DNA of 64,000 bases from Synergistales bacterium (GCA_963666205.1 OY762654.1:1632001-1696000), one strand, 5' to 3'; numbered from the stretch's first letter, positions 11,255-51,768 are shown. A program made the numbers and translations. Notes: a model not told the origin generated them from the letters alone.

Positions 11255-11790
11255 TTATTTGTTGTTTGGGGTTTCTTCGGGATCGTTCTGGGAGGGCTCG
11301 AAGGATTCCCGGGCAGCTTCCTGGTTCAGCCTGATGGCTTCCAGCTTGAAGGCTTCTATGATCTTCTGGAAGTCTGGCATGAGGATGTTTTCTCCCTCCT
11401 GCTTAATAACGAAGATGAGGTGTTCCCCTAGAAATGTGCCCTTAAGAGTGGCGTCAAGCTGTTTTTACGACACGTTGCAGATCCTTCCCACGGTGTCCAC
11501 GGCCACGCCAGTCTCTATTCCCTTTTCCTCGAATTGAATAAGAAGTCTTTTCTTCTGTAAGGGAAGGAATGATTCAATTTTAAGGAATTCCGCCAGGTCT
11601 CTAGCGGGGAGTATCTACCCCCTTATGGTGTAAACCCGGGGGAGAGTGGCCAGTGTCAGTGCCATAACCCTCACTTTCTCAGGCCTATGATCTTTTTCAT
11701 GATGCTGATATTGACAGTGAAGACCCTGCTTCCAGGTTCCAATACCACCACTTGCATCACGGTTTTACCCTGTTTGGGGCCTTCTCCCAT
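11255..11790 (-). pseudogene. cheW: cheW/cheV CheW-domain pseudogene
   Basis: MQVVVLEPGSRVFTVNISIMKKII, a frameshift, then VYTIRG*ILPARDLAEFL...GVAVDTVGRICNVS*...ENILMPDFQKII; internal stops at 11615-11617 and 11465-11467. Confidence 0.8.
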
Positions 11791-11856
11791 TTTTCTCTTT
11801 CTGATTAAAGGCTGTTCATATTTCTTTTGCCCTTAACAGCCTTGTAAAAAGGGTTA

Positions 11857-12645
11857 TCACTTTTTCATCGAATTTGCAATGGCAAGAAGTTCATCGGCGG
11901 TCTGAATGGCTTTTGACCCGGCTTCGTAGGCTCTCTGGGCAGTGATCATGCTAACCATTTCCTCTACCACCTGCACATTGCTTCTTTCAATGGTACCCTG
12001 CACTATAGAGCCGATCCCATCTTCCGATGGTGTGCCCACTATGGGGGCTCCGCTTGCATCAGTCTCAAGGAAAAGACTTTTTCCTGCTGCCAGAAGCCCT
12101 GCAGGGTTGACAAAGCGTGCAAGTTCTATCTCCCCTATTTCCTGGAAGAGAGGATCATCTGCTACTTTGACCGATACTATTCCGGTGTCGCTAATGTTCA
12201 TCTCGGTGGTATCCTCCGGAATTGTCACGGCAGGCTCCAGAATATAGCCGTCCATTGTTACCATCTGGCCTTCCCCGTCTATGCTGAAGGCGCCGTTCCT
12301 TGTGTACGCTATTGATCCGTTGGGGAGAGTGACCTGGAAAAAACCGTCCCCCTGGATCATTATATCCGTAGGGTTATCGGTGACCTCCGCAGTTCCCTGT
12401 CCCATCATTCGCATAGTTCCTGTTACTCTGCTGCCAAGACCTACCTGTACACCAGTGGGTACTGTGGAACCCGGCTCTACAGGTGCCCCCGGCTCTCGAT
12501 CTATCTGGTAGAGGAGATCCTCGAAATCCGCACGCTGCTTCTTGAAGCCGGAGGTATTAACATTGGCAAGGTTGTTGGCTATGACGTCCAGATTCGTCTG
12601 CTGTGCTTTCATGCCTGATGCTGCCGACCAAAGGGCCCTGATCAT
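11857..12645 (-). CDS. flgG: Flagellar distal rod protein FlgG
   Basis: MIRALWSAASGM, ANNLANVNT, FEDLLYQ, YTRNGAF, ERSNVQVVEEM. Confidence 0.95.
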   Translation of the reverse strand: MIRALWSAASGMKAQQTNLDVIANNLANVNTSGFKKQRADFEDLLYQIDREPGAPVEPGSTVPTGVQVGLGSRVTGTMRMMGQGTAEVTDNPTDIMIQGDGFFQVTLPNGSIAYTRNGAFSIDGEGQMVTMDGYILEPAVTIPEDTTEMNISDTGIVSVKVADDPLFQEIGEIELARFVNPAGLLAAGKSLFLETDASGAPIVGTPSEDGIGSIVQGTIERSNVQVVEEMVSMITAQRAYEAGSKAIQTADELLAIANSMKK

Positions 12646-12679
12646 ATGTTTCACTCCCCTTTTCTTTATCGGATCAAAA

Positions 12680-13126
12680 TCATGCCAGGAGAGACAGGAG
12701 ACATCCCTGGATCTCTGTGGTGATACCCATGATCCTGCTTCTTTTTCCTTCCCGGCCTATCACCTTTTCAAGTTCGCTGAGTCCCTTGCGGGTCCTGTCA
12801 ATAAGTAGTCGGGAGGATCCGCATATCATGGAAAAGTCCCTTCGTATCTCCAGCATGGACTCTGCCTTCTGAAGTATCTGACCCACCACACTTCGATACT
12901 CCTCCAGGACCTTGTCAGAGGGAAAGCGGAAAAGCTTCTCCGTCACAATTTCCAGGTCGCTCAGGATATCCCTTGTTTCTACCCTGAGAAGATCTTCCTC
13001 GAAGTTTGCCTTCCCTGCATCTTTTGTCTTTAGCTGAAGTTTTCCGGTTTGGGTCCCCTTTGAACTTTCCATAAAGGATTTTTCCAGAAATATTCCTTCA
13101 GCAACGCAGTTACCGGAAATGCTCAT
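12680..13126 (-). CDS. YaaR/DUF327-like protein
   Basis: Helical protein with LEEYRSVV and C-terminal EIQGCLLSLLA; sigma28-type promoter upstream. Confidence 0.6.
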   Translation of the reverse strand: MSISGNCVAEGIFLEKSFMESSKGTQTGKLQLKTKDAGKANFEEDLLRVETRDILSDLEIVTEKLFRFPSDKVLEEYRSVVGQILQKAESMLEIRRDFSMICGSSRLLIDRTRKGLSELEKVIGREGKRSRIMGITTEIQGCLLSLLA

Positions 13127-13186
13127 TAACGGGCCACCTTTCGGGAACTAGGGCCTTCCTGTAAAAGGAAAGGGACTCCTCATAGA

Positions 13187-13214
13187 GTATCGGTCCTCCC
13201 TGTCCTGCTCTTGA
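13187..13214 (-). promoter_or_regulatory. sigma28 (FliA)-type promoter
   Basis: TCAA-N16-ACCGATAC on the minus strand. Confidence 0.65.
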
Positions 13215-13227
13215 GTAGGAGCGTATA

Positions 13228-14394
13228 TTATTCAAGGGAGGAAATGTACCATCCGCCCTGAAGCTCCGAAAGCTTGAGGGAGACAGATCGGAGTGTTCGT
13301 ATAACCAGCAGTTTCTGGGCGAAGATCACCTTTGCCTCGTCCTTATCTCCTTCATCAACTAGTTTTGAGTCAAGGGGAAGTGTACCGGGCAGGGATCTTT
13401 CCTTCAACAGGGCTTCCAGGTCTTCTGAGCTCTCTATCTCCTCTCGGAAAGCTGGCGAAAGAAAATTCAGCATCTCCATGGAGTCGCCCTTTTTCCATGC
13501 CACCAGAAAAAGCTTCATAATCTGGTTTCGACTGAAGCCTGGAATGATAGGAGCCTCTTCTTTCTTCCGGGAGGGAAAACTCACCTCCGGAAGAATCACT
13601 TTCTTCTGTTCAGCAAAGAGGGGTTTCTGTTTTTTGACCAGTTCCGCCAGGGTCTCATCGAGCCTCTCTCGAAGAAGAGCCTTCTGGCAAGAGAGGGCTT
13701 CTATCTGTTTGAGAAGGATGGACTTTTCTCCCTCCCAGTTGTTCCTGTTATCCTCCAGTTCCTTTTTCCGGATCTCTTCAGCCTGGATCTGCATTTCCTG
13801 AACTTCTGCAACGGAGGCAATCTCAGACTTTTTCTTAACCTTTTCGGTAACTTCCTTCCTCAAACGATTGTCCCGATCCTCGGGAAATTCGAAGGTAAGT
13901 TCTCCTCCCCTGTCTGGAAATAGTACAAGCTCAAAGGGGCCCTCCACAAGAGGAAAGAAGACCAGTCCCTGCACCAGGCCGGTTATGGGACTGTCGAAAA
14001 GGTTGTCGTAGGAAGTGGGAGCCAGTCTTTCACCGTCCGAGGTCTGTAGGAAGAACTTTTCAGATAGAGGTTTGAGCTCAATAGCTCTATCTGTGTAGCT
14101 GTGAAGGGAAAGGAGAACGGGGGTGGATTTATCCATTTTCAGGGAACAGCGGAAATCTTCCGCCATCTTCCCTGTAGGGTCCCCTGCTCCGCCAGTTCTT
14201 GACCTTACCCAGGGATCCACCATATCCTCGGGATAGTGGACCGCCCATACCAGAAAGTCCCTGCCCCAGCGAAAGGCTGTCCTGCCGTCCAGAATGGTCT
14301 CCACAGGGTTTACCCCTCCATTCGAGGGAACAGGGGAAAGAAACAGGAGAAGGGTTAGTGTAACGGTAAAAAAATTAAGGGTTTTACGGATCAT
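13228..14394 (-). CDS. Exported hypothetical protein with central coiled coil
   Basis: Signal peptide, GGAGG RBS, E/K-rich heptad region. Confidence 0.7.
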   Translation of the reverse strand: MIRKTLNFFTVTLTLLLFLSPVPSNGGVNPVETILDGRTAFRWGRDFLVWAVHYPEDMVDPWVRSRTGGAGDPTGKMAEDFRCSLKMDKSTPVLLSLHSYTDRAIELKPLSEKFFLQTSDGERLAPTSYDNLFDSPITGLVQGLVFFPLVEGPFELVLFPDRGGELTFEFPEDRDNRLRKEVTEKVKKKSEIASVAEVQEMQIQAEEIRKKELEDNRNNWEGEKSILLKQIEALSCQKALLRERLDETLAELVKKQKPLFAEQKKVILPEVSFPSRKKEEAPIIPGFSRNQIMKLFLVAWKKGDSMEMLNFLSPAFREEIESSEDLEALLKERSLPGTLPLDSKLVDEGDKDEAKVIFAQKLLVIRTLRSVSLKLSELQGGWYISSLE

Positions 14395-14582
14395 GACAAA
14401 CCTCCGGATATCTTGACTGTATGAAGATTCTTTTGACCATATACAAACCTATAAAAAATATTATAATAATAAACGTTTATATGTCTACTATATATTTTTA
14501 ATTCTTTTCGGAACTGTAATTTCAGAAGATGAGGGGGGCCTTGTTCAAGAGGGGTTCTTCCAGGAAGGAGCTGGTCTAGCCA

Positions 14583-15074
14583 ATGACGGTAAGGATAAAC
14601 ACCCCTCTTATGGGGGAAGTGGATGTGGAGGAGAAGGACCTACTCTTTTTCCCGAGAGGTCTGCCGGGCTTCGAAAAACTGCACCGCTGGGTACTGGCGG
14701 GAGAGGACGATGATTGTATAAAGTGGCTTATCTCAGCCGACCTAGGCCAGATAACTCTGCCGGTGATGGACCCGGTTCTGGTGGATTCCCGTTATTCCCC
14801 CTCTATTCCGGTAGAAGTGCTGGAAGAACTGGAGATAAGGGAATTTAAGGATGCTCTTGTGATTGTTATCCTTAACATTCCCCGGCAGGAGCCCTGGAAG
14901 GGAACGGCCAATCTTCTCGCACCCCTGGTGATAAACCCCGTGAGCCGAAGGGGCAGACAGGTGGTTCTCTATGACGAACGCTACAGCGTCTATTCTCCGC
15001 TGATTTCCGAAGGGGAAGTGCCCCGGGTAGAAACCGGAGAGCCGGAGACTTGCGAAGAAAAGGAGAATAACTGA
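14583..15074 (+). CDS. fliW: Flagellin-sensing CsrA antagonist FliW
   Basis: FPRGLPGFE, TANLLAPLVIN, GRQVVL; translationally coupled to csrA (TGATG). Confidence 0.92.
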   Translation: MTVRINTPLMGEVDVEEKDLLFFPRGLPGFEKLHRWVLAGEDDDCIKWLISADLGQITLPVMDPVLVDSRYSPSIPVEVLEELEIREFKDALVIVILNIPRQEPWKGTANLLAPLVINPVSRRGRQVVLYDERYSVYSPLISEGEVPRVETGEPETCEEKENN

Positions 15075-15328
15075 TGCTTGTCCTCACCAGGCGCAAGGGT
15101 GAAAGCATAGTTCTGGATGTGGGCAACGGCATAGAGATAACCGTCATTGAAGCGGGCAACGGATCAGTAAGGCTGGGCATAGATGCCCCACGGTCGGTGG
15201 ATGTGTGGAGAAAGGAAGTGCTCCTCCAGGTGCAGGACTCCAACAGGACGGCAGCCCAGCTGCCCGAAAAGGGCCTGGAGGGTTTACAGAACCTCCTTAA
15301 AAAGCGAAGCCATACCCAGGAAGGATAG
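15074..15328 (+). CDS. csrA: Carbon storage regulator CsrA (FliW-type, extended C-terminus)
   Basis: [27 protein letters not shown]-x-x-A tail. Confidence 0.95.
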
Positions 15329-15447
15329 ACACAGGGTAATGGAAGCCCTTGAGGGTTCAGAAACACTGGAGTCTGTTTATCAAGCCCATTCCTTCAGGGA
15401 TGAGACCTGGAAGCAGTATGATCCTAAAAATCCTTATGATTATTTTT

Positions 15448-15476
15448 TTGTTTCCAGAACTCAGGACTCTTATATT
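15448..15476 (+). promoter_or_regulatory. sigma70-like promoter upstream of flagellin
   Basis: TTGTTT-N17-TATATT. Confidence 0.4.
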
Positions 15477-15499
15477 TCTCCACGAGGGGCAGGGTCCTG

Positions 15500-15580
15500 C
15501 CGGCGGATTTTGCCCGGAAGTGCTCACTCGGGTGCTTCGGATTCCACGGAAGGAATTTCAAACAACTTACAAGGAGGTTT
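15500..15580 (+). promoter_or_regulatory. CsrA-binding leader of flagellin mRNA
   Basis: Six GGA motifs in about 70 nt; ACGGA in the loop of hairpin attcc-acggaa-ggaat (15541-15556); AAGGA overlapping the SD. Confidence 0.75.
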
Positions 15581-15587
15581 CAGCAAT

Positions 15588-17879
15588 ATGCGTATTTACC
15601 ATAATATCAATTCCATGGTAACCCAGAACAGCCTCAAAACTAACGACAGTTCCCTTTCCAAGTCTCTTACCAGGCTTTCCACAGGTCTCAGGATCAACAG
15701 TGCTGCCGACGATGCAGCAGGACTCGCCATCTCCGAGAAGATGAGGGCCCAGACCTCAGGACTTGACCAGGCTGTGAGTAACTCCCAGGACGGCATTTCA
15801 CTCATCCAGACCGCAGAGGGTGCTCTTAACGAGACCCAGTCCATTCTTCAGAGGATGAGGGAACTCACCGTCCAGGCTGCCAATGACACCCTTACTTCCA
15901 ATGACCGCCAGGCTATGCAGGGTGAGATCGACCAGCTCACCGAGGAGATCGACCGCATTTCCGACACCACTACCTTTAACACCAAGAAGCTCCTGGACGG
16001 TTCCGCTTCTGCTCTGACCTCAACAGATAACGCCAATACAAGCGTTTTCGCAAGGGGTTCCGTAACCAATGAAGGCAACTACAAGATCTCCGTTGATCTT
16101 CTTGAAGCAGGTGTTGGCCAGGTTCAGAAGAGCGACGTTTTCACCATAAAGTCTGATGTAGATGCAGTAGTTGACAAGACAATTGACTCCAGTGCCGGAA
16201 TTACCCAGATGGACGCTTCAAGTCTGGCTTATGATACCTATACCATTAAAACAGACGCTTCTGAAGCTGCAGCTGGAGTAGCATTCGCAATCACAGATTC
16301 TTACATTCAGAATACTGGTGGCGGAGCGACCGATATCTTTGATGGAGATCTTGCAATAGGGTCAAATGCTGTGGATATCAATGCTTCCATTTCGATGGAA
16401 ATTACCGATATCACCGGTGCGGATGTTACTGTTGCGTGGGAAAGTTATGAAATGGCTGCTGATGGAACAACCACCACTTACAGTGGGACCTATACCTGGG
16501 ATTCCGATGGAGCAGATGCTGCTGATGTGGTTTTTGGTACCGTTAAACTGGATATTGCAGGTGGTGGTGGTAGCGGATCAGCCGATATTACAAACCTTAC
16601 TGTTGGAGATAAAAGCATCATAACGCAGTCCGGAGACAACGGAACTGCTGCCCACGATGCCATTACTGTTACTCAGGGAACGGCTGATGCTGCGGCCAAG
16701 TTCGTTTTTGCCGAAGATCAGTTTGACAATGGTACTGCCACAGTCAGCATGTACACAATGGATGCTAATGGAGAAGTTTCTGAGGGTACAATCAGTTTCG
16801 AATTCGGTTCAATGGTTTCTACAGATCCGGCCGCATCTTTTACATATGGCATGTCCGAGGGTGATGTGGCGACTTCAAGCACAACCCTTAAGAACGTTGA
16901 TGCATTCTACGATGCATCAGGGACTTTTCTGCTTGAAGACCCCCAGACCCTTACCATAGTGCAGGGCGATGGACAGAAGGCAACCGTAACCCTTTATGCT
17001 GATGATACTTTGGGCGATGTAGAAACAAAACTTAACGATGCCCTGAAGTCAACCCTTAACCAGGGTGATTATGTCGGTCTTGCAGATAGCGAAAATCTCG
17101 TGCAGTTTATCGACAAAGGTGAAGTTGTTGCCAATACCAATTTCTCAACCAATGGAAACTTTGTTATCAGCAGTGCTGTTACCGGAGCGTCTGGTGAATT
17201 TAATTTCATTGGCGATGAGGCCCTTATAAATGCTATGGGACTTACCGAGATCCAGGCAAGCCAGGAAAACCGCTTCTCACTAGATGTTACTGACGCCCAG
17301 ACAGGGTCTTTCATTGCAAGCGGAGTTGAGCTCACAAGCAACACCCTTGTTGGTGTCGTGGATGCCAACGTGGATGTCCAATTCGACAAAATGGCAAATA
17401 CTGCAGTTTCCTGGGATTCCACCAATAAGGGATGGACAGTGGCAAGTGATACGGGTTCAACCGACATCAACATACACATCGCAGCCCATTCCACCAGGTT
17501 CCAGATCGGCGCAAATGAAGGCGAAACCATGAGCATCGATCTTGGCAATATGTCAGCTGCCGCCCTTGGTGTTGCTAATATTCTTGTTACCGATCTTGAC
17601 AGTTCTTCCCGCTCCATAACAGTTCTTGACAATGCTATCAATAAGGTATCCAAACAGAGGGCGGGCCTGGGTGCTTACCAGAACCGTCTTGAGCACACCA
17701 TCAATAACCTGAGCACGGCCAGCACCAACCTCACTGCTGCCGAAAGCCGTATCCGCGACGTTGACATGGCTGCAGAGATGACCGAGTTCACCAAGAACCA
17801 GATCCTCATGCAGGCTGCCAATGCCATGCTTGGTCAGGCGAACCAGCTCCCACAGCAGGTCCTCTCTCTTCTCAGGTAG
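15588..17879 (+). CDS. fliC: Flagellin (763 aa, large hypervariable region)
   Basis: MRIYHNINS after [62 protein letters not shown]. Confidence 0.97.
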
Positions 17880-21257: not shown

Positions 21258-21447
21258 AAAAGGAGCTCCTGGAGATTTCTCTCTATTCAGAATCATCCAG
21301 TACCTGACAGGCTTTCTCTGATGTTATCTATGGGCCCGAGGGAACTCCATATTTCCCTTTCCAAGTCCAAACCTAACAATATTGTTCAAACATGGTACCT
21401 CCCGGTCTATTATTCTTTGCCGGCTTGATCTGCTTAATATTCCAGTG

Positions 21448-22961: not shown

Positions 22962-23165
22962 ATTGTGATTATCTTCATTTGATCAAAAGTCCATATTCAG
23001 CGGGCGTCTCTACGGGGCTACCCTTTCTTTTTATGATTTACTGAAGTACAACTTACGGTTTTTTGGATTAAGAAAGAAAAGTCCTGGTTGGCTAAGGGGC
23101 CATCTTGCCGACCAGATGATGAGAGAAAAGAGATGGTTCCTGTCAAGGGATTAAAAAGATTGATG

Positions 23166-40719: not shown

Positions 40720-40761
40720 TCATAATCACTGGTTAACTGAAAATAATCATCAGTCTGGTTA

Positions 40762-41441: not shown

Positions 41442-41795
41442 TTAAACATCTCCGACCTTTTTCCTGTTCTGCAAGCCATCTGTCAGTCTTGCAGAGGCCT
41501 CCCGAACTGACTCGGCATCTCCCCTGGCAAATGATTCGAGCATCTCCAGAAGGGTTTCTTCTTCCATCCTCAACCTTGCCATGACCCGGCTGTATTTTCT
41601 TATCAGAAGGGTATCCTTTTTTTGGGGCCTTGGAACATCTCTCCTCAGCCCAGAGTAGTGATCCTCTATCCGTTTTTTCAGTTCTTTTTTCCTGTAGGGA
41701 TCTCTAAAACAAGCAGCCATTTCTGCTGCACCTGGCAGCGAAAATCCCTTGTTTCTGATCATTATATATTTTCTCTCCTCCCGGATGGGGTTCAT
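41442..41795 (-). CDS. Hypothetical basic helical protein coupled to flhG
   Basis: Overlaps the flhG stop; GGAGAG RBS before internal MIRNK. Confidence 0.5.
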   Translation of the reverse strand: MNPIREERKYIMIRNKGFSLPGAAEMAACFRDPYRKKELKKRIEDHYSGLRRDVPRPQKKDTLLIRKYSRVMARLRMEEETLLEMLESFARGDAESVREASARLTDGLQNRKKVGDV

Positions 41796-42787
41796 TTCCT
41801 GGAGCCGAACTTGTCGAGCATGGTTTTCAGAAGTCTTGCCATAGGCCCCTTCTGGCCGTCCAGAGGAGCCTCTCTGTCCTTTTCTTCAGGAACGGAGAGG
41901 ATTCTCTCCGTTATATCCTCCATTTTCTTTGCCAGAACACTTCTTGGATAAAGTTTGACCAGAGGACATCTTGCTTTTACAGCCCTCGAAACTCTCAGAT
42001 CATATGGAAGGTAACCAAGAAAGTTCAAGTGAAGATCAAGGAAATGCTCGCTAGTGCGGATAAGCCTTTCTGCTCCGAGAATGGCCTCCTGCCTTGAGAA
42101 GGCCATGTTGATGACGATGTAAATTTCCTTTTCTCCAAGCTGCTCCTTTGTATAGCAGTGGAAAAGGCTTTTGATCATGCCGTAGGCATCTTTCAGGGCA
42201 GTGGGTTCGGGAGTTGTAATAAGAACAATGGCATCGGCGGCCATTGAAAAATCCCGTACCGTGGAATTGATTCCCGCCCCTGTGTCTATAACTATTACAT
42301 CCACCATATCGTCCAGGGCCATTATTTCGGGCAGAAGTTCGGCTCTGGCCTGGGGGTCCATTTCTGCGAGCTCAGGTATGCCGCTCCCGCCAGGAACGAG
42401 CCATACCCTTTCCGAAACGGGAAGGGTTATTTCTCTGAGGGAAAGCTCTCCCCGGATCACGTGATTGAGATTAAGCCTTGTATCCAGCCCCAGAAGAACA
42501 TCCGCATTGGCAAGCCCCAGATCGGCATCTATAAGGGCGGTGGGTTTATTGAACTTTTCGCCTATGAGGAGAGCGAGATTCAGTGCAAAACTGCTTTTCC
42601 CAACGCCCCCCTTGCCGCTTATGACGGCTATGGACTTCTTCCCTTCCTGGCGGATCTGCTTATTTTTCAATGCTCCTTCGTAGAGAGCTTTCTGTAATTC
42701 CCTGAGCTGAAGGGATTCGAAACTGTAATCCTCTATGTTTGAGGAGGTATTGTTCCCTTTTGTAGAAATGATCTTGCCGAGCCTCAT
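41792..42787 (-). CDS. flhG: MinD-like ATPase FlhG
   Basis: SGKGGVGKS, DADLGLAN, DTGAG, TTPEPTA..DAY. Confidence 0.93.
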   Translation of the reverse strand: MRLGKIISTKGNNTSSNIEDYSFESLQLRELQKALYEGALKNKQIRQEGKKSIAVISGKGGVGKSSFALNLALLIGEKFNKPTALIDADLGLANADVLLGLDTRLNLNHVIRGELSLREITLPVSERVWLVPGGSGIPELAEMDPQARAELLPEIMALDDMVDVIVIDTGAGINSTVRDFSMAADAIVLITTPEPTALKDAYGMIKSLFHCYTKEQLGEKEIYIVINMAFSRQEAILGAERLIRTSEHFLDLHLNFLGYLPYDLRVSRAVKARCPLVKLYPRSVLAKKMEDITERILSVPEEKDREAPLDGQKGPMARLLKTMLDKFGSRK

Positions 42788-43995
42788 CTTTCTTCTCCCC
42801 TGCCGAAAATAGAATCCATAATGAACTCGGGGTCGGCGTAGTTTATATCCCGAGGTACGTTCTGTCCAGTAGTGACGAAGGAAAGCGGGAGGTTAAAGGT
42901 CAGAGGCAGAGCCAACAGGCATCCAAGACCCAGGGTTTCGTCGGCTTTTGTCAGAAGCAGCCTGGAAATTGGGACAGCTCCCCCTGTTTTTTCAATGGCA
43001 ACCCTGACATCACCTGGTCTGGAAGTGGCCGATACCGCCATGTGAACAGCCTGGGGGGAGAAGTTTTTATATATGTTCTCTACCTGTCCGATACGGTCTT
43101 TTTCCCTGAAACCATGTCCAGCCGTGTCCATAAGGATAAGGGTGTCCTCCGAATATTTTTTCAGCAGTTCAGGTATCTCCGCACCATCGTTAACGGCTTC
43201 CAGGGGGATGTGAAGGACTCTTGCGAATGTCCTGATCTGATCCACTGCAGATACACGGTAGTTATCTGAAGTGAAGAGGGCCACATCCCTTCCTTCCTGA
43301 ACGGCTATAGCAGCTATTTTGGCTATTGTAGTGGTCTTGCCCACTCCCGTGGGACCAACTATCATTACCCTGTTTCCTCCCAGAGCACTGGTGAGCATGT
43401 CCTTTCCGGGAGCAAAACATAGCCCTTTACATCGCATTTTCAGCCACTTCCGGAAAGAAAGTCCACTTTCAGAGGAGTCACAGAATTCGTTCCATAGCAT
43501 CTCAGCATGATCTTCAGGAAGGTCGCTTTTCAGCAATACTTCCAAAGCCAGGGCCTTTTCAGAGAATTTTCCTTGTCCTTCTGTCCCGGTTTTTCCCATC
43601 TCAGGTATTGGTTCAACAGGATTGGAAGCAGGGTGGACTTTGATATCCACAGTGTCTTCCATTCCCTCAATGAGACGCTCCTGAAGGTTTTTTGTATCCT
43701 CTTTCTGAACCAGGTTCTTTTTGTATTCCAGCAGGGCCTTGAAGACCTCCATCTGCCTCTTTTCGAGTTCGGGATCCCGTTCTTCCACCGTGGGTTTCTT
43801 TTCATCCTCCAGGATGCCCGCTCTTACGACCAGTTCCTTCTTCCTGAAAAAGGGGAAGAACGAAGGAGCTCTAACGGTTTGTATGGAAAGGATAATTCCG
43901 TCGGATCCAAGCTTCTCCCTTACCCGCTGAAAGGCTTCATTCTCGGTTTTTGCACGGAATTCTATTTCTTTAATCAGCCTCAATGGTACCATCAC
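42784..43995 (-). CDS. flhF: SRP-family GTPase FlhF
   Basis: GPTGVGKTTT, DNYR, DTAG, TKADE, TGQNVP. Confidence 0.93.
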   Translation of the reverse strand: MMVPLRLIKEIEFRAKTENEAFQRVREKLGSDGIILSIQTVRAPSFFPFFRKKELVVRAGILEDEKKPTVEERDPELEKRQMEVFKALLEYKKNLVQKEDTKNLQERLIEGMEDTVDIKVHPASNPVEPIPEMGKTGTEGQGKFSEKALALEVLLKSDLPEDHAEMLWNEFCDSSESGLSFRKWLKMRCKGLCFAPGKDMLTSALGGNRVMIVGPTGVGKTTTIAKIAAIAVQEGRDVALFTSDNYRVSAVDQIRTFARVLHIPLEAVNDGAEIPELLKKYSEDTLILMDTAGHGFREKDRIGQVENIYKNFSPQAVHMAVSATSRPGDVRVAIEKTGGAVPISRLLLTKADETLGLGCLLALPLTFNLPLSFVTTGQNVPRDINYADPEFIMDSIFGRGEER

Positions 43996-44097
43996 CTTCT
44001 CCTGTCTGATCCCGGGTATCAGAATTCTATTTGGTAAATATCTTATCTTATATGATGGAGAATCTTTATGAGTCTCAATCCTCTTTTCTTTGATAAT

Positions 44098-44481
44098 TCA
44101 AGTGTAAGTAACCTTTGAAGGTTTTTTGTTGAGTAAGGAACCAGACGTTTTGAATCTCACTTTGGTGGGACCGCATATCTCTTAAATAGGCCCGATCATC
44201 AGATAACTATCCGGGTCAAGCCAGTTAAAGAAGTCTTTATAAAGCCTGGACTTCGCCTCTGATGGAAAGTAGATAACCACGTTTTTGCAAGTCCTCTGGA
44301 GAAGTTAATGGTATTCCCTGTAATTGGAGATGTTCCAAGTATTCATAAGGGAATGAATGGGAAGATGGATCTGGTATTTGTAAATTTCCAGAGCCACTCC
44401 AGTAAGGAGGCAAAATCCTTTTTGGATTCTTCATATCCGCCAGTCGGGTATATTTTCTGACTCACGAAAAATTTCCAGCAT
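44098..44481 (-). pseudogene. cheR: cheR methyltransferase pseudogene with core deletion
   Basis: N-terminal YEESKKDF../GVALEIYKYQIHLPIHSLMNTWNISNYREYH* fused in frame to CKNVVIYFPSEAKSRLYKDFFNWLDPDSYLMIGPI*EI (the CRNV.IYF motif); has a frameshift and two stops. Confidence 0.85.
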
Positions 44482-44485
44482 GTTT

Positions 44486-45178
44486 CTAGGAAGAGACCCC
44501 GTAGGTTATTACCTGTTCCCTGTTGCAATGACCGACGAGTTCTGTAATCCTGATCCCGAAATTTTCATCTATTACAACCACTTCGCCTTTGAGGATTAGT
44601 TTGCTGTTGGCAAGGACCTCGACCGGCTCTCCCACCAGCTTATCCAGCTCCACCACGGTTCCCTGTTCAAGGGAAAGGATCTCGCCGATGGTCATCTGGG
44701 TTCTTCCAAGAACCACTGATATCTTCACGGGTATATCCATGAGCAGGTTTATCCCCACTCCATCCATGGTCGAAGAGAATTGGGGTGTTTCCATATTGCC
44801 GATCTGGGGAAAGCTTGCTGGTTTTGCCTGAAGCTTTTCTACAGGAGAAGATGATAGGGGTTTCAAATTGGAGCCTGAAGAGGATTTCACACCTGTAGTT
44901 GTTTCATCGAGAGATGAATAACTCTCGCCTTGGCAGCATGATTCGATCCCCATCCTCTCAAGGTCTGGAATTTCAGGGATGCTTTCCGCGAGGACGTCCA
45001 ATCCTTCAAGTCCCCTGGTAATGGCATCGGCCTCCTCGGGGCTTATTCCCGAATAATCAGATTTTTCAGGAGTTTCGGACTTTCTAGGTTTCTCCTCCTG
45101 GGAAAGGACGGTTTCTTCAGAACCTGTCTGATTTTCAAACGTGGGTTGTCCATCCTTTATTGTTTTCTCTTCGGACAT
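44486..45178 (-). CDS. fliN: FliN / shortened FliY switch protein
   Basis: C-terminal LMDIPVKISVVLG...GEVVVIDENFGIRI; no CheC-like domain. Confidence 0.88.
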   Translation of the reverse strand: MSEEKTIKDGQPTFENQTGSEETVLSQEEKPRKSETPEKSDYSGISPEEADAITRGLEGLDVLAESIPEIPDLERMGIESCCQGESYSSLDETTTGVKSSSGSNLKPLSSSPVEKLQAKPASFPQIGNMETPQFSSTMDGVGINLLMDIPVKISVVLGRTQMTIGEILSLEQGTVVELDKLVGEPVEVLANSKLILKGEVVVIDENFGIRITELVGHCNREQVITYGVSS

Positions 45179-45239
45179 GATAAAGGGTAACTGCCTGCCG
45201 GCAATTCACCCTCACCTCCTTCTGTCAGCCTTTTTTCTT

Positions 45240-46007
45240 CTAGGACCCGAAGGTCTCGATCATCTTTCTTGCGGATTCAGAACCGCATTCGAAAGCCTTT
45301 GAGGCAGCTTCATAAGCCCGGCTAGCTTCGATCATTCTCGTCATTTCTTCCACAATATTTACATTTGAGCCTTCCAGAGCTCCAGCAAACAGGTTCACAT
45401 CTTCCCCGTCAACTTCTTCAGGAGAGCCGGAGAGGCTTGTCTCGGAAAGGAGGGTACTTCCCCTTCTCATTAGGTAGGAGGGTGATGCAAAACGGTACAG
45501 GGATATTTTGCCTATTTCCGCTCCATCCGCCAGGACTGACCCGTCAGATCCTATCTCTATGGCCGAAGCTTCTCCGGGGGTTATGGGACCGCCCTCTCCC
45601 ATAATGGTCATGCCCGTGGATGTTACCAGGTTACCTTCTGAGTCCAGAGAGAAGTTTCCTGCCCGGGTATAGTAATTGTTATGGCCGTCGGAGACATGGA
45701 AATAACCATCACCACTTATGGCACAATCCAGGGGATTTCCTGTTTCCACTATTGTGCCGGGTTCAGTGTTAACTGCCGTTTCGGAGAGTACTACCCCCAA
45801 CCCGGCAACATCTACTGTTTTTTCAGAGATGCCTCCTGAACCGTTACTTTCCTTTCGAAAAAGTTGGACTTCCGGAAATGTTTTTGCCACAGCCAGACTT
45901 TTGGAAAAACCCGAGGTACTGGCATTGGCAAGGTTATTGGATGCCACATCCACTGCTTTTTCCTGAACCAGCATGGCTGCAATACTTCCATAAATTCCTC
46001 GAAACAA
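45240..46007 (-). CDS. flgF: Rod protein FlgF/FlhO
   Basis: SNNLANAST, TGNPLD, YTRAGNF, LEGSNVN. Confidence 0.88.
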   Translation of the reverse strand: MFRGIYGSIAAMLVQEKAVDVASNNLANASTSGFSKSLAVAKTFPEVQLFRKESNGSGGISEKTVDVAGLGVVLSETAVNTEPGTIVETGNPLDCAISGDGYFHVSDGHNNYYTRAGNFSLDSEGNLVTSTGMTIMGEGGPITPGEASAIEIGSDGSVLADGAEIGKISLYRFASPSYLMRRGSTLLSETSLSGSPEEVDGEDVNLFAGALEGSNVNIVEEMTRMIEASRAYEAASKAFECGSESARKMIETFGS

Positions 46008-46019
46008 GTGATCAGCCCC

Positions 46020-46439
46020 CTATCCCTTAAGGAGGTCTGTGGCTGCTTCCCACATGGATCTGGCCGACTGGACAACCTCCAGGTTAGCCTCGTAGGCACG
46101 GCTGGCTGCCATCATGTCAGCCATTTCCCTGACCACTGAGACGTTGGGGTATGCCACGTATCCCTCTTCGTTTGCATCGGGGTGGCCCGGGTCGTATTCC
46201 ATACGGGAAGGGGAATCATCCAACTCGATTTCCTTGATCACAACTCCCGCGGATCTTCCTCCATCTCCCATGGCTTCCACCAGTTTCTCTTCAAAGACAG
46301 GGATTTTCCGCTGATAAGGGCCGCCATCTTCTGTTCGGGTGGAGTTTACGTTGGCCAGATTTTCCGCAATAGTGTCCATCATGACTCTGTGTGCTGTAAG
46401 GGAGCTGCCTGCTATGTCCATATTCTTGAAAACTCGCAT
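46020..46439 (-). CDS. flgC: Rod protein FlgC
   Basis: YDPGHPDA..GYV.YPNV, ASRAYEAN. Confidence 0.96.
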   Translation of the reverse strand: MRVFKNMDIAGSSLTAHRVMMDTIAENLANVNSTRTEDGGPYQRKIPVFEEKLVEAMGDGGRSAGVVIKEIELDDSPSRMEYDPGHPDANEEGYVAYPNVSVVREMADMMAASRAYEANLEVVQSARSMWEAATDLLKG

Positions 46440-46440
46440 T

Positions 46441-46854
46441 TTACTTGCCTCCCATTGCTGTTTTTATCATATCGGCCCGCTTTGCCATCATTCTCAGGAT
46501 GCCGTTGTAGGCCATCTTTGTTTCTGCCATCTTTGCCATTTCGATCTCAGGGTCCACGTTGTTCCCGTCAAGGCGATAAATCCCTTCATCGTTGGTTATT
46601 TCCCTGACCTGGAAAACCTCAATTCCCTTTTCCTGGGTATTTGTGCCAAGGTGTTTCTCATCGGTGGTCTTAAGAGCCAGCTTTTGCGAAGAGCCATTTT
46701 TTTCAAGGGCTGACCGGAGATTATCTTCGAAGGGAACTTCCTTTTTTTTATAGGCAGGGGTGTTTACGTTGGCCAGATTTTCAGCCACTGCCCCGAACCT
46801 CCTGGCAAGGGCGGAAGCTCCCAGTTTGCCTGCCATCCATGTTTTGTCATTCAT
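46441..46854 (-). CDS. flgB: Rod protein FlgB
   Basis: ENLANVNTPAYK, RLDGNNVD. Confidence 0.95.
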   Translation of the reverse strand: MNDKTWMAGKLGASALARRFGAVAENLANVNTPAYKKKEVPFEDNLRSALEKNGSSQKLALKTTDEKHLGTNTQEKGIEVFQVREITNDEGIYRLDGNNVDPEIEMAKMAETKMAYNGILRMMAKRADMIKTAMGGK

Positions 46855-46930
46855 CGGACCCGTTCACCCTCTCTTCAAGGTGCTTGTATTATTTCTGAAC
46901 AGATTTTTTCTTGAATTATCTTATGTTCTT

Positions 46931-47545
46931 CTAAGTCTTTTCGGTTTTTATCCTTGCAAACCTTACAAGTTTTGCTGCGGATTCGGGATTCATTTTTCCC
47001 AGAACCTGGGATCTCTGCTCCGGATCCATAACTTCCAGCAGAGAGGCGGCTTCCTCCAGTGGAAGAAGAGAGATTATCCTGGCTGCCTTTGAAGAAGGCA
47101 TCTCTGCAAAACTTTCGGAAATCAGACCGAAGAAGACTGGAGCCTCCTCGCTTTGTGTCTTTTTTCCCTTGATCTTATCAGGGGTTGCAGCCTTTTCATC
47201 AAGGAGGGTCTTGCTGGTCCTGATCTTGTTCTTCTCCTTTTCGAGGCTGGCTCTTTCTTCTTCCAGGGCCTTGCTCTTTTCCAGGAGATATTTCTCCTTC
47301 TCCTCAAGTTCCAGGAGACGGCGTTCGTAGGCAGTTACAGGGGGTGATATTTTTTCTAGGAGGGGATAGACTTTCCTGCCGATGAGGGGTACTCTCTCTA
47401 CCCATGGCACTATCCTGTCAGCGATCATATACATACCGCCACCCATATAAAGTCCCGCAATTATGCCTGTTAAAAGGACCAGAAGGAGCAAAAAGATCTT
47501 GAAGAATTTCAAGGTATTTCCTAATCTACCAATGCTGGTTTCCAT
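46931..47545 (-). CDS. MotE/YlxF-like membrane coiled-coil protein (MgtE-N-like tail)
   Basis: TM helix, coiled coil, EMPSSKAARII...LGKMNPESAAKL. Confidence 0.75.
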   Translation of the reverse strand: METSIGRLGNTLKFFKIFLLLLVLLTGIIAGLYMGGGMYMIADRIVPWVERVPLIGRKVYPLLEKISPPVTAYERRLLELEEKEKYLLEKSKALEEERASLEKEKNKIRTSKTLLDEKAATPDKIKGKKTQSEEAPVFFGLISESFAEMPSSKAARIISLLPLEEAASLLEVMDPEQRSQVLGKMNPESAAKLVRFARIKTEKT

Positions 47546-47563
47546 TTTCTTCTCCTTGTCCCG

Positions 47564-47932
47564 TCAGTAGATCTCGTTACGGGAAATTTTGCAGAGGTAA
47601 TTCTTGTCCGTGCTCAGATAAATTTCAAGTATGGTTCCGTCCTGATCGTTTTCGCTGAAGCAGTTTATCCAGTCGGCAGGAATGAAGCTGCCGTCCAGCA
47701 TGATGTCCCGGGCCCTTTCGAATGTCCTGCATACGAAGGTTCCAAGGTTAACCTGGGGTTCTCCGTCCAGAGAGAAGGCCATTTTTATCCTTTCCCTTTC
47801 CTCTTCTTCTTCTTCTCTCTCCTCCTCTGCAAGAAAGGAGGAACTTCGGTAGGGAGCGGGGATCTCAACCATCCTGCAGGAGCATGACTCTATTTCAAAG
47901 ATCTGAAGGACATAGCATCTCTCCATATACAC
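47564..47932 (-). CDS. Hypothetical acidic protein
   Basis: GGAGG RBS; poly-E tract; same operon as its neighbours. Confidence 0.55.
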   Translation of the reverse strand: MYMERCYVLQIFEIESCSCRMVEIPAPYRSSSFLAEEEREEEEEERERIKMAFSLDGEPQVNLGTFVCRTFERARDIMLDGSFIPADWINCFSENDQDGTILEIYLSTDKNYLCKISRNEIY

Positions 47933-47942
47933 TGGGACCTCC

Positions 47943-48593
47943 CTAAAAGACTTTCCAGGTCCGTTCTCCTATGTCCTGGTTGTGTACAAGCTCTGCTGAA
48001 AAGGAACTGTATTTTTTCAGCAGGTTATGGTTGAGACCTTCAAGAGCATCCAGATCTGGTCTGTAAGGATCGATCTGAAGGAAGATCCTGGTCATCTCTT
48101 CTATTGTTCCCTGTGGTTTTCGATCTATTTGCCAGAAATACTTTGCCTCTGCAATTGTAAGGGCTACCTGAAGGGTATGAGAGAGACCCGCCCTGATCCG
48201 GCCTTCAGGAAATGAACGGCCGATGAGATCGAGTTTTTTCTCCATTTCCTTTCTACTTTCCTCGGGACATCTGTCCTTCATAAGGGCATCGGCGAACCAG
48301 AGCCTTGACACACAGAAAATCGGCCATATCTGGTTTTCGAATACACTTTCCGGCATTGCTTCCGGTCCCTCAACTACAATAGCAGAAAAGAGTGGGTGAA
48401 CCCTTTCCGCCAGGAATGCGAGGCAGAGGCATCTTATAAATTGGGAGTTATTTCGGTTTTCCCCTTCCGGTAAGAAGAATATGTGCTTTTTCCCTTCAGG
48501 ATCACAGGAGGCTTCAAAGAGATCACCGTCAGTTTTACATATCTCCAGTGGCCATTTCAGTTCTTTTTGCAGTTTTCTGATAGCTTTATCCAA
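47943..48593 (-). CDS. Hypothetical protein, possible catalytically dead zincin fold
   Basis: TTG start at 48593 after GAGGTG; FIRCLCLAFLAERVHPLFS segment. Confidence 0.6.
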   Translation of the reverse strand: MDKAIRKLQKELKWPLEICKTDGDLFEASCDPEGKKHIFFLPEGENRNNSQFIRCLCLAFLAERVHPLFSAIVVEGPEAMPESVFENQIWPIFCVSRLWFADALMKDRCPEESRKEMEKKLDLIGRSFPEGRIRAGLSHTLQVALTIAEAKYFWQIDRKPQGTIEEMTRIFLQIDPYRPDLDALEGLNHNLLKKYSSFSAELVHNQDIGERTWKVF

Positions 48594-48637
48594 AATTGTT
48601 GCACCTCTTTTCTTAGTAAAGGGGACTCCCTTTTCTA

Positions 48638-48665
48638 GAATCGGCAATCTGCGGACGGAAAAATA
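48638..48665 (-). promoter_or_regulatory. sigma28-type promoter
   Basis: TATT-N16-GCCGATTC; same architecture as TATT-N16-GCCGAAAA upstream of fliK (about 32318-32345). Confidence 0.5.
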
Positions 48666-48769
48666 GGGGGTTTTTCCAAATTTTTACTTTTTTCCAGGGG
48701 TCCCGGCTAACATACTTAAAAAGAGGTCTTTAATCACTTGTTTCACCTCAGGAGAGAGGAGGTCCATGG

Positions 48770-49606
48770 ATGGACATATTGGCAATGTCAAGTCTTCTTG
48801 CTACATTAGCCCTGGTAGTGGGGAGTATTATACTTGGAGGTTCCCCAGGAGCGTTTTTTAATTTGCCTTCCATATTCATCGTTGTGGGCGGAACCATGGG
48901 TGCTATTGGTCTGGCAACGCCCATGAAAGAACTTATGATGCTCCCTCACACTCTTAAGAAGGTCTTTGCTCGAGAGGAGAACCTGGATATCTCACATGTG
49001 ATCCGCATAATGATGTCCATGGCAAAGAAGGCAAGATCCGAAGGGCTTCTTGCTCTTGAAGAGGAACTGGAAAAGATTGATGACGGTTTCATACTTAAAT
49101 CAGCCCAGCTTGTTATAGATGGGACTCCTCCGGAACTTGTAAAATCCATCATGGATGTAGAAATAGATCTTATGGAAAGACGTTACGATGAGTCCAAAAA
49201 AGTATTTGACCTCATGGCTGATCTTGCACCAGCCTTTGGAATGATGGGGACCCTGATAGGATTGATCCAGATGCTGAGAAACCTGGATACTCCCGAAGCC
49301 CTGGGGCCAGGGATGGCTGTGGCCCTGATAACTACCTTCTATGGAACATTCATCTCCAATGTATTCGCCATACCTATTTCTAAAAAACTGGTAACCAGAA
49401 AGGTCAATGCTACCAAAGGAATGGAGATTGTAATGGAAGGTATCCTGTCTATACAGGCCGGTGATAATCCCAGACTGATAGAGGAGAAATTGAAGATTTT
49501 CCTTTCACCTCAGGAGAGATTAAGGTTGGATGAACCGGAAAACCGATCCTCAGAGAGAAACATAACGGGGGTGAATGTATCGGAGGAACCCGTCGTTCAG
49601 TCGTAA
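48770..49606 (+). CDS. motA: Stator A subunit (PomA/MotP-like)
   Basis: ARSEGLLALE, APAFGMMGTLIGL, AVALITTFYG. Confidence 0.93.
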   Translation: MDILAMSSLLATLALVVGSIILGGSPGAFFNLPSIFIVVGGTMGAIGLATPMKELMMLPHTLKKVFAREENLDISHVIRIMMSMAKKARSEGLLALEEELEKIDDGFILKSAQLVIDGTPPELVKSIMDVEIDLMERRYDESKKVFDLMADLAPAFGMMGTLIGLIQMLRNLDTPEALGPGMAVALITTFYGTFISNVFAIPISKKLVTRKVNATKGMEIVMEGILSIQAGDNPRLIEEKLKIFLSPQERLRLDEPENRSSERNITGVNVSEEPVVQS

Positions 49607-49611
49607 AGTCA

Positions 49612-51435
49612 TTATCGGGGAAAGGGCAGAAAACCGTTCCAGAAGGGGATACGGCCCTCCATTACTGTGTTCGCGAACCTTCCTGTAATGAAAAGTCCTG
49701 AGGCCTTGGGATTCCCGGGCAGTTCCAGGGATGGCTTAAATGCTATCCTAAAATTAAGTGACAGACATGGTCTTAAGTCAGGTATCTGATCTCTTGAAAG
49801 AATCATCCTTCCGCCTGTGGCCTCTGAGAGCCTTAATTGATAAAGATCTGGAATTACCTTGTCAGCCAGAAGATGGATCACAATGCCGTTGGAGAGGGCA
49901 TATCCTCCGAAGAGGGTTAGGGAAGCCAGATCCTGGGGAATGTTACCAGGATCAAGTAAAAGCTGCACTGCAGGTCCTCTAATGAATTCCTCGTCTGCGG
50001 GATCGGGAAGGCTGGGTTTTTCAATGGGAGCACTATCATAAGTTATCTCAGTTTCTACAACATCGATGAGGTTCCCTCCAAGTATTCCCTGGAATATCCT
50101 TTCATCAGTTCCTGATGGTCTGCCCAGAGGATGAATCAGCCTTGCTTCCACTATCCAGTTCTGGCGATTCCCTCTCTTTGCAGAAACAGGCCGGGGATAT
50201 TTCAGGGCCAGAAAACCTTTTTCAGCTTTTGTAATTATATTGCTGCACCTGTAAAGACGGGTGTCAGTTACTAAAACCTCCCCCTGACCGTTGCTGAAGA
50301 GAAACCACGCCTCGGGAAATGCCCCTCCGATACGAGAGCTTCGTTCATCCTTCAGGGATAATTCGAATAATTCCCTTTCCTCGGTAAGTACAAGAAGTTT
50401 TTCCGAATTGAGCCATTCAACCGATCGGGGATGTCCTGTAATATTAAAATTAGTAATTTCTTTACCTTTTTGAATATCCAGGATGAAAACCCTGTTTCCC
50501 ATCCTGTCCGCGACTGCGAGCAGTGGACCAAGAGATGCCAGGGATACAGGTTCGAAGCCTGATGAGGAAGGGTGCCATGAGTAGAGGGTCTTTCCGTCGG
50601 AGATGTTCACTACGAAGATCCTGCCCATTATCCTTTCGGCCAGGACAATGCGCCCAGCTCCGGCAAAGGATGCATCTGATATTGAACGGGCTTGGGTATT
50701 TCCCCTGAGTATTTCTGAAAAAACCTTACGGTTGAAACTTCCCCGAAGGAAGGTACCATCGGAGAATACCAGAACCAGACTATCTCCCCCTGTCGGAAGT
50801 GCCCGCACTATCTGGCCTCCGGCTTTACCGGAATAATATCTGCTCCACCCTTTTTCGTTTTTCTTGTAAACCCAGACCTTTTGGTTCATGGTATCGCAGA
50901 GTGTAAGGATATTTCCCATGAGAGACGGGCGGCCCGGCATGGAAAAGGAGGATCCCCAGAAAATGTCCAGGTCGAATTTATCCCTGAAATTGCCTGGACC
51001 TGACATTTTAGTACTGCTGCTTATTCCTGAAGAAAGGCTTTTCTCAAGATAAACACTTCTATCTTCAATTTCCTTGAGAAAACCGATGGCGAAAGGGTCA
51101 TCAGGCTTTACTTCAAGGTAGAGTTCCAGGTTCCGCCTGGTTTCGGCATAATCGCCAAGAAGTGAAAAACAGTAACCTCTCAGGAGGTAGTATGAAACCA
51201 GGTAGGGATCATACCTAAGGGTCTCCTCAAGTTCTTCAAGGGCATTGCCTACCTTCCCCTCCAGAGCCTTCTGATAGGCGGAGGCGAAGATGGCTTCGCC
51301 GTACATATGTTCCGCTGTTGGGAGAAAGATACGGGGTTCAGATGCATTTACAAAGGCAGGAATCACAATAATGGTTCCTACCAGGAGATACAATATGAAC
51401 TTATTCACCCTTTTCAAAACAATTCCCCCGTTCAT
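49612..51435 (-). CDS. Exported TPR + beta-propeller-like protein
   Basis: Signal peptide; TPR-like YLLRGYCFSLLGDYAE; repeated propeller-like strands. Confidence 0.6.
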   Translation of the reverse strand: MNGGIVLKRVNKFILYLLVGTIIVIPAFVNASEPRIFLPTAEHMYGEAIFASAYQKALEGKVGNALEELEETLRYDPYLVSYYLLRGYCFSLLGDYAETRRNLELYLEVKPDDPFAIGFLKEIEDRSVYLEKSLSSGISSSTKMSGPGNFRDKFDLDIFWGSSFSMPGRPSLMGNILTLCDTMNQKVWVYKKNEKGWSRYYSGKAGGQIVRALPTGGDSLVLVFSDGTFLRGSFNRKVFSEILRGNTQARSISDASFAGAGRIVLAERIMGRIFVVNISDGKTLYSWHPSSSGFEPVSLASLGPLLAVADRMGNRVFILDIQKGKEITNFNITGHPRSVEWLNSEKLLVLTEERELFELSLKDERSSRIGGAFPEAWFLFSNGQGEVLVTDTRLYRCSNIITKAEKGFLALKYPRPVSAKRGNRQNWIVEARLIHPLGRPSGTDERIFQGILGGNLIDVVETEITYDSAPIEKPSLPDPADEEFIRGPAVQLLLDPGNIPQDLASLTLFGGYALSNGIVIHLLADKVIPDLYQLRLSEATGGRMILSRDQIPDLRPCLSLNFRIAFKPSLELPGNPKASGLFITGRFANTVMEGRIPFWNGFLPFPR

Positions 51436-51470
51436 TACCTTAAGCTTGTTTTCTTCGGCAAACCATACTA

Positions 51471-51768
51471 TTAATCTTTTTTGACGGAAGCAGGGTCGAT
51501 TATAAGAGCTACATTTCCATCCCCGAGGATAGTCCTTCCTGAGGTTGAACTTTTACTCTTCCTTGATCCGTCAGGTACTTCTTCCATTGTATTGGTGAGT
51601 GATGTCATGTTATTGAAACCCATGGTTTCCCCCATTCCCTTCAGGGTATGGACAACCCGGAAGATCTTGTTGATCACCCTCTTCGAAGGCCAGAAGATAT
51701 TTTTTCAGCCTCTACAGGTTGTCTTCAGTTGAATCGATAAAGGTTCCGATATAATCATTGAGATCCAT
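51471..51768 (-). pseudogene. cheA: cheA histidine kinase remnant
   Basis: MDLNDYIGTFIDSTEDNL*RL..., a frameshift, then Hpt motif INKIFRVVHTLKGM joined directly to the extreme C-terminal GRTILGDGNVALIIDP; the kinase core is absent. Confidence 0.9.

Follow-up and report, generated by a model that had tools for sequence, protein, structure and literature searches.

What becomes of a flagellum once the system that steers it has been lost? The question is raised by a 64,000-nucleotide stretch of DNA from a Synergistales bacterium (GCA_963666205.1, OY762654.1:1632001-1696000; the whole of this stretch is called the window below), in which flagellar genes with open reading frames lie among the damaged remains of chemotaxis (che) genes. 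The window comprises bases 1,632,001-1,696,000 of a single-contig genome of 2,948,783 bp with a completeness score of 100%. An initial annotation, made from the sequence without comparison to relatives, had described an intact flagellum beside a systematically destroyed chemotaxis system, and had proposed that selection keeps the flagellum rotating and unsteered. On the strength of comparative sequence analysis, we hold with good confidence that the locus records a real, old and lineage-specific loss of the whole of chemotaxis signalling, with a complete flagellum probably being kept under purifying selection.

Two relatives served as comparators, a genome of the same genus (G001) and one from a second genus of the same family (G002). 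G001 matches the whole window in a single syntenic run at 85-93% nucleotide identity, broken at six sites where it carries extra DNA. At matching sites among its flagellar genes it holds ten intact che genes, while the second of its genes for a methyl-accepting chemotaxis protein (MCP) lies on another contig. The open reading frames (ORFs) of G001 at these sites, assigned by Pfam, encode a CheW-domain protein of 186 amino acids (aa), CheW (153 aa), an MCP (710 aa, with an MCPsignal match and sub-threshold HAMP and dCache matches), CheB (355 aa), CheC (206 aa), CheD (170 aa), CheX (165 aa), CheY (120 aa), CheR (287 aa) and CheA (652 aa, with Hpt, P2, dimerisation, HATPase and CheW domains). G002 has CheA, CheR, CheX and CheY at the same positions between the same flagellar genes. 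As both relatives share this layout, the interleaving of che with flagellar genes is ancestral and the present genome is derived; on this reconstruction, the ancestor held one che set interleaved with flagellar genes.

Measured against that set, with lesions called by alignment to the intact G001 orthologues, ten of the 11 che genes have been deleted or disabled, leaving cheY as the only one with an open frame. Deleted outright are cheW, both MCP genes, cheB and cheC; the cheW-like gene, cheD, cheX, cheR and cheA survive as broken remnants. Counted from the first base of the window, the che genes and the scars of those deleted within it are:

11273-11686, minus strand: cheW-like pseudogene, orthologue of the 186-aa CheW-domain protein of G001
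about 21275-21340: scar of the deleted cheW, seen as a break in synteny (465 bp in G001, 65 bp in the window)
about 23030-23109: scar of a deleted MCP gene (2.5 kb extra in G001)
24100-24330, plus strand: scar of cheB, cheC and the 5' two thirds of cheD, with the breakpoint at about 24154-24159 (2.1 kb extra in G001)
38742-39269, minus strand: truncated cheX, with an open part at 38805-39269 (154 aa)
40762-41118, minus strand: cheY, a 118-aa open frame with a Response_reg domain
44101-44427, minus strand: cheR remnant, the methyltransferase core gone
51436-51768, minus strand: cheA remnant, comprising a broken Hpt part and the last few codons

The lesions differ from gene to gene. The cheW-like gene carries a 1-bp deletion at codon 47, a GAG>TAG change at codon 69 (11615) and a GAA>TAA change at codon 120 (11465). 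What is left of cheD is its last third (24155-24327), with three stops and two frameshifts. Adjacent TGA and TAA codons in cheX, at positions 144-145 (38805/38802), cut off the C-terminal 22 of 165 residues, and the CheX Pfam score is 33 bits here versus 48 in G001. Residues ~63-206 of CheR have been deleted, such that the stretches matching G001 residues 15-62 and 207-269 survive, both interrupted by a stop. In cheA a CAG>TAG change at codon 19 (51712) is accompanied by an 11-bp deletion and by a 1649-bp deletion taking out P2 through P5. The initial annotation had reported a frameshift and two stops in a gene called cheW/V, the double stop in cheX, the core deletion and stops in cheR and the loss of the kinase core of cheA, and alignment to G001 bears out every one of these lesions. 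The label of the first gene must be amended, since its intact orthologue has a CheW domain only and no receiver, which makes it a paralogue of CheW and not a CheV. Five further losses are revealed by the comparison alone, namely those of cheW, the MCP gene at this locus, cheB and cheC (taking the 5' end of cheD with them) and the second MCP gene.

Nor was an intact che set, or any MCP, found elsewhere in the genome by searches with profile hidden Markov models (HMMs) and tblastn. MCPsignal has no match genome-wide at E <= 0.01, and neither G001 MCP gives a tblastn match, the second MCP gene thus being missing elsewhere in the genome as well. The CheA dimerisation domain (H-kinase_dim) has no match genome-wide by HMM, and the deleted cheW has no tblastn match in the window or the genome. 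The CheW HMM finds one match in the genome, at window positions 11351-11671, in the pseudogene holding the TAG and TAA codons, while the CheR HMM finds a 40-aa remnant with a TAA (window 44176-44292) and one distant intact gene. Searching by tblastn with all 11 G001 che proteins returned solely the window remnants, generic receiver domains and this orphan CheR, which is 282 aa long (genome 2,401,929-2,402,777). Its neighbours (genome 2,396,696-2,405,382) are a dCache-HAMP-HisKA-HATPase hybrid kinase with four receiver domains, a receiver-HD-GYP protein and a HAMP-PAS-GGDEF-EAL protein, with no che genes among them, and G001 carries the same CheR paralogue besides its chemotaxis CheR. Given this setting among kinase and cyclic di-GMP (c-di-GMP) enzymes, and its presence in G001, the orphan CheR does not amount to a substitute che system. 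The genome is thus without the CheA, CheW, MCP and CheR/CheB (with CheC, CheD and CheX) of a chemotaxis pathway, and has only its CheY. The orphan CheR is thus found in a genome lacking any MCP.

The flagellar genes are in a different state. Pfam scans of long ORFs identify 33 flagellar genes with open frames and Pfam support in the window, close to the 35 or so of the initial annotation, with FlgN and FlgB just below the cut-offs; the names FlhG, FlhF, FlgB and FlgC were assigned from family and gene order. Their positions are:

11857-12654, minus strand: FlgG-like distal rod protein
between the FlgG-like gene and FliW, within 11857-17879: two unknown genes, full length against G001
14583-15074, plus strand: FliW
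about 15339-17879, plus strand: flagellin
24352-35498: FlgN (weak match), FlgI, FlgH, FlgA, FlgK, FliS, FliK, FliD, FliM and FliL
36804-38642, minus strand: FliR, FliQ and FliP (export gate)
41792-46854, minus strand: FlhG-like and FlhF-like NTPases, FliN, a second FlgF/G-type rod protein, FlgC and FlgB
48770-49606, plus strand: MotA stator subunit (Pfam MotA_ExbB and MotA_N)
within 52349-63951, minus strand: MotB, FlhA, FapA, a lytic transglycosylase, FliJ, FliI and FliH
within 52349-63951, minus strand: FliG, FliF, FliE and a FliA-type sigma factor

All the flagellar genes of the window are full length against G001, and the set at 11857-17879 holds no stops. The initial annotation had reasoned that decay of flgE or flhB would reveal a system failing as a whole; both genes are intact just past the end of the window, as are flgD and flgL. 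FlhB (396 aa) spans positions 1-335 of the 335 in its Pfam model, and FlgE (640 aa) and FlgD (140 aa) are encoded together with FlgL at genome positions 1697270-1702665. With these four genes, the export apparatus is complete (FlhA, FlhB, FliP, FliQ, FliR, FliH, FliI and FliJ, all open with full-length Pfam matches), as are the rotor and switch (FliF, FliG, FliM, FliN), the stator (MotA, MotB), and the rod, P and L rings, hook, junction, filament and cap (FliE, FlgB/C/F/G, FlgI/H/A, FlgE/D, FliK, FlgK/L, flagellin and FliD). The presence of FlgH and FlgI marks the flagellum as being of the diderm type. The two ends of the flagellin are conserved, with 90-92% identity to the congener and ratios of nonsynonymous to synonymous substitution (dN/dS) of 0.15 and 0.06, while its middle 560 codons are hypervariable, with 56% identity to the congener and saturated dS (1.66). 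Proteins of the filament family are very large in this organism, the flagellin having about 846 aa and FlgL 973 aa (genome 1,697,270-1,700,191).

How specific is the damage? Disabled genes number ten of 11 for che and none of 37 for the flagellum (Fisher p = 1.7e-9), and the sole non-che gene broken in the window encodes an unknown 143-aa protein (unk143). As a control, 400 kb of another G001 contig was compared with this genome, using ORFs of at least 120 aa. Of 339 such ORFs, 70 have no orthologue at >= 65% identity and at most 12 of the remaining 269 look broken, part of these probably being spurious; even so counted, at most 82 of 339 are lost or broken, a far smaller share than ten of 11 (p = 9e-6). 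By a hand count, disabling lesions occur about once per 100 bp in the che remnants and nowhere in the roughly 40 kb of flagellar genes interleaved with them. Because the flagellar genes are interleaved with the wreckage, the contrast between decay and preservation does not reflect a regional mutation rate.

Substitution patterns point the same way. In pairwise comparison with G001, in which the values blend both lineages, dN/dS is 0.05-0.3 for flagellar genes, including 0.10-0.30 for rotor, switch and stator genes (stators 0.13-0.17, MotA 0.17) and 0.08-0.25 for the block at 52349-63951, versus 0.60 for the cheW-like pseudogene and 0.64 for the cheR remnant. A relative-rate test counted the amino-acid changes specific to this genome and to G001, with G002 as the outgroup. 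For 17 core flagellar proteins, a sum that leaves out the row for FliR (affected by a non-coding ORF extension), the unknowns, the HD-domain protein, the transglycosylase, an MgtE_N-like protein, a TPR-like protein and CheY, the test gives 170 changes here and 146 in G001 (p = 0.20), with individual counts, here and in G001 respectively, of 14/12 for FlhA, 12/12 for FliG, 22/21 for FliF, 10/7 for MotA and 16/9 for FliN. The che remnants are one-sided, with 19/1 for CheR, 24/6 for CheX and 8/0 for CheA. The initial proposal that selection keeps a rotating, unsteered flagellum therefore appears to be supported, both by the low dN/dS values of the flagellar genes and by the symmetric relative rates of the core flagellar proteins.

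The same data allow a rough dating. The two congeners are separated by a dS of mostly 0.3-0.5, and dN reaches 0.26 in the cheR remnant and 0.18 in the cheW-like one, where a branch that had been neutral throughout is expected to show dS/2, or about 0.15-0.2. The closeness of remnant dN to the neutral value for the full branch suggests a loss about as old as the divergence of the two species; as these are pairwise values and not a fitted model, we infer only that the loss may be roughly of the age of the species split, at a dS of about 0.4. We envisage that signalling failed first, whereupon all the other che genes would have become neutral and decayed separately, through at least five deletions and through stops and frameshifts in five more genes. 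Meanwhile the approximately 40 kb of flagellar genes were preserved, those for the filament, the switch and the two stator subunits included. A rotating flagellum would presumably still be built without receptor-driven phosphorylation of CheY, and in that case swimming is expected to be undirected, in the default mode of the motor, and not up gradients.

Such a state is rare in the phylum. Among 31 relatives, 19 have FlhA, and of those with FlhA this genome alone is without an intact CheW or any MCP. In a wider phylum sample of 184 genomes with a completeness of 90% or more, FlhA occurs in 120 and the CheA dimerisation domain in 122, and 116 of the 120 FlhA-positive genomes show that domain. 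Three of the four FlhA-positive genomes without the CheA domain are fragmented assemblies, all with intact CheW, leaving the present genome as the sole one of 120 with neither an intact CheA nor an intact CheW. The inverse state occurs in the same order: in the genus g10, genomes G020 (99% complete) and G029 each have two CheW genes and three MCPs with no match to FlhA, which suggests that the chemosensory system of g10 serves something besides flagella.

Several observations weigh against loss of steering with selective retention of the flagellum, and are best considered together with the competing explanations. That the lesions are artefacts of assembly or sequencing, or were acquired in the laboratory, we regard as highly improbable. 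Single-base frameshifts can be long-read assembly errors, and our check against Logan contigs covered window positions 32001-52000, so that the lesions at 11-25 kb fall outside it. Three runs of one sample contain the stretch in full, and two runs of a second study contain about a third of its words; X1 and X2 may come from the source sample, whereas X4 and X5 belong to the second study. A single X1 contig spans 32001-52000, and its lone disagreement with the assembly, a 1-bp indel with an A>C change at 38754-5, sits in the dead 3' part of cheX, downstream of the stops. The X2 contigs (32001-38303 and 40193-52000) show no differences, and X1 is the one run whose contig supports the cheX lesion (38.7-39.3 kb). 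From the second study, an X4 contig (48797-52000) bridges the cheA deletion and remnant with no differences, and short X5 contigs, with no more than one difference, overlap parts of the remnants of unk143, cheR and cheA. Within 32001-52000, then, the initial judgement that the lesions are not sequencing errors stands, as the lesions are carried by contigs, those of the second study included for cheA, cheR and unk143. Moreover, five separate deletions of 0.4-2.5 kb removing che genes, many stop substitutions and a dN raised in every remnant are not what an artefact would leave, and laboratory passage would account for neither the number of the lesions nor their age. A second explanation, that motility is being lost as a whole, with che genes going first and flagellar genes not yet hit or only weakly relaxed, draws on relatives of the same family: G003 and G004 are without FlhA and CheW (G004 retains one MCP match), so that full loss of motility does occur in this family and the present genome could follow. 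It draws also on the sum over all 27 non-che rows, 301 changes here against 216 in G001 (chi-square 14), a significant excess that is due in part to CheY (11/1), to the TPR-like gene (21/9) and to a 153-aa gene beside cheA (12/3), with the count for FliN tending in the same direction; there may thus be general or local relaxation, or a mild lineage-wide acceleration, in this genome, and the pairwise dN/dS values blend both lineages. Also, no RNA run is listed among those containing the stretch, and the flagellum could be silent. Nonetheless, the freedom of the flagellar genes from stops and frameshifts beside remnants so densely hit, the symmetry of the core proteins and the low dN/dS of the stators make an ongoing loss of the whole system quite unlikely.

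It is also rather unlikely that the flagellum has been retained for a job other than swimming, such as adhesion, contact with a syntrophic partner or protein export, for which steering is useless. The dispensability of chemotaxis, the retention of filament, cap and hook-junction genes and the hypervariable middle of the flagellin, as expected for an exposed surface, would all fit such a role, and FliD of Pelotomaculum, a lead from the initial annotation, reportedly signals to a partner. However, pure adhesion or export needs no torque, and the retention of MotA, MotB, FliG, FliM, FliN and FliL, intact and under purifying selection, therefore speaks against it. The remaining alternative is that steering persists by another route, CheY being phosphorylated by acetyl phosphate or by a kinase other than CheA and switching the motor via FliM. 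The intactness of cheY, absent from the initial account, leaves room for residual steering: it is the only open che gene, with no disabling lesion in 357 bp where about 3-4 would be expected (a hand estimate), and it keeps D8, D9, D52, S80 and K102, while FliM keeps its N-terminal LNQAEIDKLL segment, which we take to be the docking motif for phosphorylated CheY. Many receiver and kinase genes are, in addition, found elsewhere in the genome. On the other hand, CheY has 11 lineage-specific changes here compared with one in G001 (p = 0.006) and has had one codon deleted, indicating relaxed constraint; the phosphatases CheC and CheX have been lost; and the genome has no receptor, CheW or CheA-like domain. 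The surviving cheY is probably a partly relaxed leftover rather than a functioning steering input, and we consider steering by such a route to be improbable. The initial annotation had further suggested that random dispersal might be gated by c-di-GMP. At E <= 0.001 neither this genome nor G001 shows a PilZ domain, and a YcgR-type c-di-GMP brake was accordingly dropped; as several GGDEF, EAL and HD-GYP proteins are present nevertheless, c-di-GMP would be read by other receptors. Beyond the loss of signalling under continued selection on the flagellum, which we favour, one may speculate that the flagellum without chemotaxis is a long-lived adapted state, about as old as the separation of the two species, in which rotation serves random dispersal, mixing or partner contact in anaerobic consortia and CheY has been rewired to acetyl phosphate or another kinase. 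We consider this more specific proposal possible but doubtful; if true, it would show a motor brought naturally under new control once its receptor-kinase array had gone.

A flagellum without chemotaxis is in itself a known state. Most Legionella, including L. pneumophila, have flagella and no chemotaxis genes (PMC5655016), and the present genome, with a complete flagellar set and no che pathway anywhere in a complete sequence, has the genomic profile of L. pneumophila, in which a complete flagellar regulon likewise occurs with no chemotaxis operon in the genome. The two cases differ in history: that review reads che as gained by one subclade and reports no che wreckage, whereas here the loss is evident from remnants at ancestral sites, in a free-living anaerobe of another phylum that has kept cheY. 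Within the Synergistota, Acetomicrobium hydrogeniformans OS1 is described as motile, with polar flagella, a full set of flagellar genes and several genes for chemoreception and chemotaxis (PMC6025917); this is the normal state, as in G001 and G002, and its chemotaxis part is gone from the present genome. Deletion of general che genes yields smooth-swimming or tumbly cells with altered attachment and spreading, according to a review (PMC8632791). In E. coli and other laboratory che mutants the motor likewise rotates while receptors cannot bias its rotation, but such mutants are engineered and usually counter-selected in gradients, whereas the state described here became fixed naturally and has lasted for a time comparable to the split between two species. 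Our phrase search for flagella lacking chemotaxis genes gave archaeal and Brucella reviews only, and a search for decayed che genes beside retained flagellar genes brought up nothing comparable among the matches listed. Aquifex aeolicus is said to be motile with no che genes in its genome paper, which the literature search did not confirm; there the absence would be a lineage trait, with no known remnants. What is new here is that the wreckage is visible at the ancestral sites, that a congener has the intact set, and that there is evidence of long-term selection on the flagellum.

Two other genes lie among the che and flagellar genes of this region:

39415-40719, plus strand: intact HD-domain protein (HD_5 / HD-GYP-type; Pfam HD_5 and HD), between cheX and cheY
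41119-41445, minus strand: pseudogene of the unknown 143-aa protein (unk143), upstream of cheY

The HD-domain protein is full length against G001, with 85% identity, and is found at the same site in G002. By comparison with G001, unk143 has several frameshifts and two stops, having decayed alongside the che genes. In G001 it is intact, lies between flhG and cheY and has an N-terminal membrane anchor; there is no match in G002. It belongs to no Pfam or NCBIfam family, and its sole lead is a weak resemblance to PrcB_C (0.87), which provides no link to chemotaxis. Two further candidates for damage were rejected. A 388-aa gene at 13228-14394 had seemed to be damaged at the 5' end, but it is intact, since the 36 additional residues of an over-long G001 ORF precede a plausible signal-peptide start. 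Likewise, the 607-aa TPR-like gene after cheA (49612-51435) is not truncated at its 5' end, as the protein begins MNGG in both species.

Other features of the window and genome are recorded here for completeness. At window positions 10328-11221 (minus strand), a 297-aa protein has an IS200-type Y1 transposase domain fused to a helix-turn-helix. This gene is at the same syntenic site in G001, with 92% identity and a dN/dS of 0.46, and has the look of a resident gene, possibly a domesticated (RAYT-like) one, rather than of a mobile copy. Tandem paralogues of 326-327 aa, with about 55-57% mutual identity, are located at window positions 5695-6678 and 6731-7711 (plus strand); the pair is present in both congeners, one copy having a dS of 1.13 compared with 0.47 for the other. 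A gene at genome positions 1,889,381-1,889,971, orthologous to that for a 198-aa protein of G001 (91% identity), has one in-frame stop, which could be the mark of a pseudogene or a selenocysteine codon. The Synerg-CTERM sorting signal has 19 matches in the genome, ten of them above the cut-off, and none in 14 control genomes, in keeping with a place in the Synergistota.

Flagella and chemotaxis are almost always acquired or lost as a pair, a rule from which this genome departs in the phylum sample. Although the case leaves our knowledge of how either machine works unchanged, it offers a clean natural experiment on the worth of a flagellum without steering, with a complete assembly, a congener that has the intact set, and wreckage from which the age of the loss can be roughly estimated. 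Should the organism be in culture, the two congeners would make a strain pair for direct testing.

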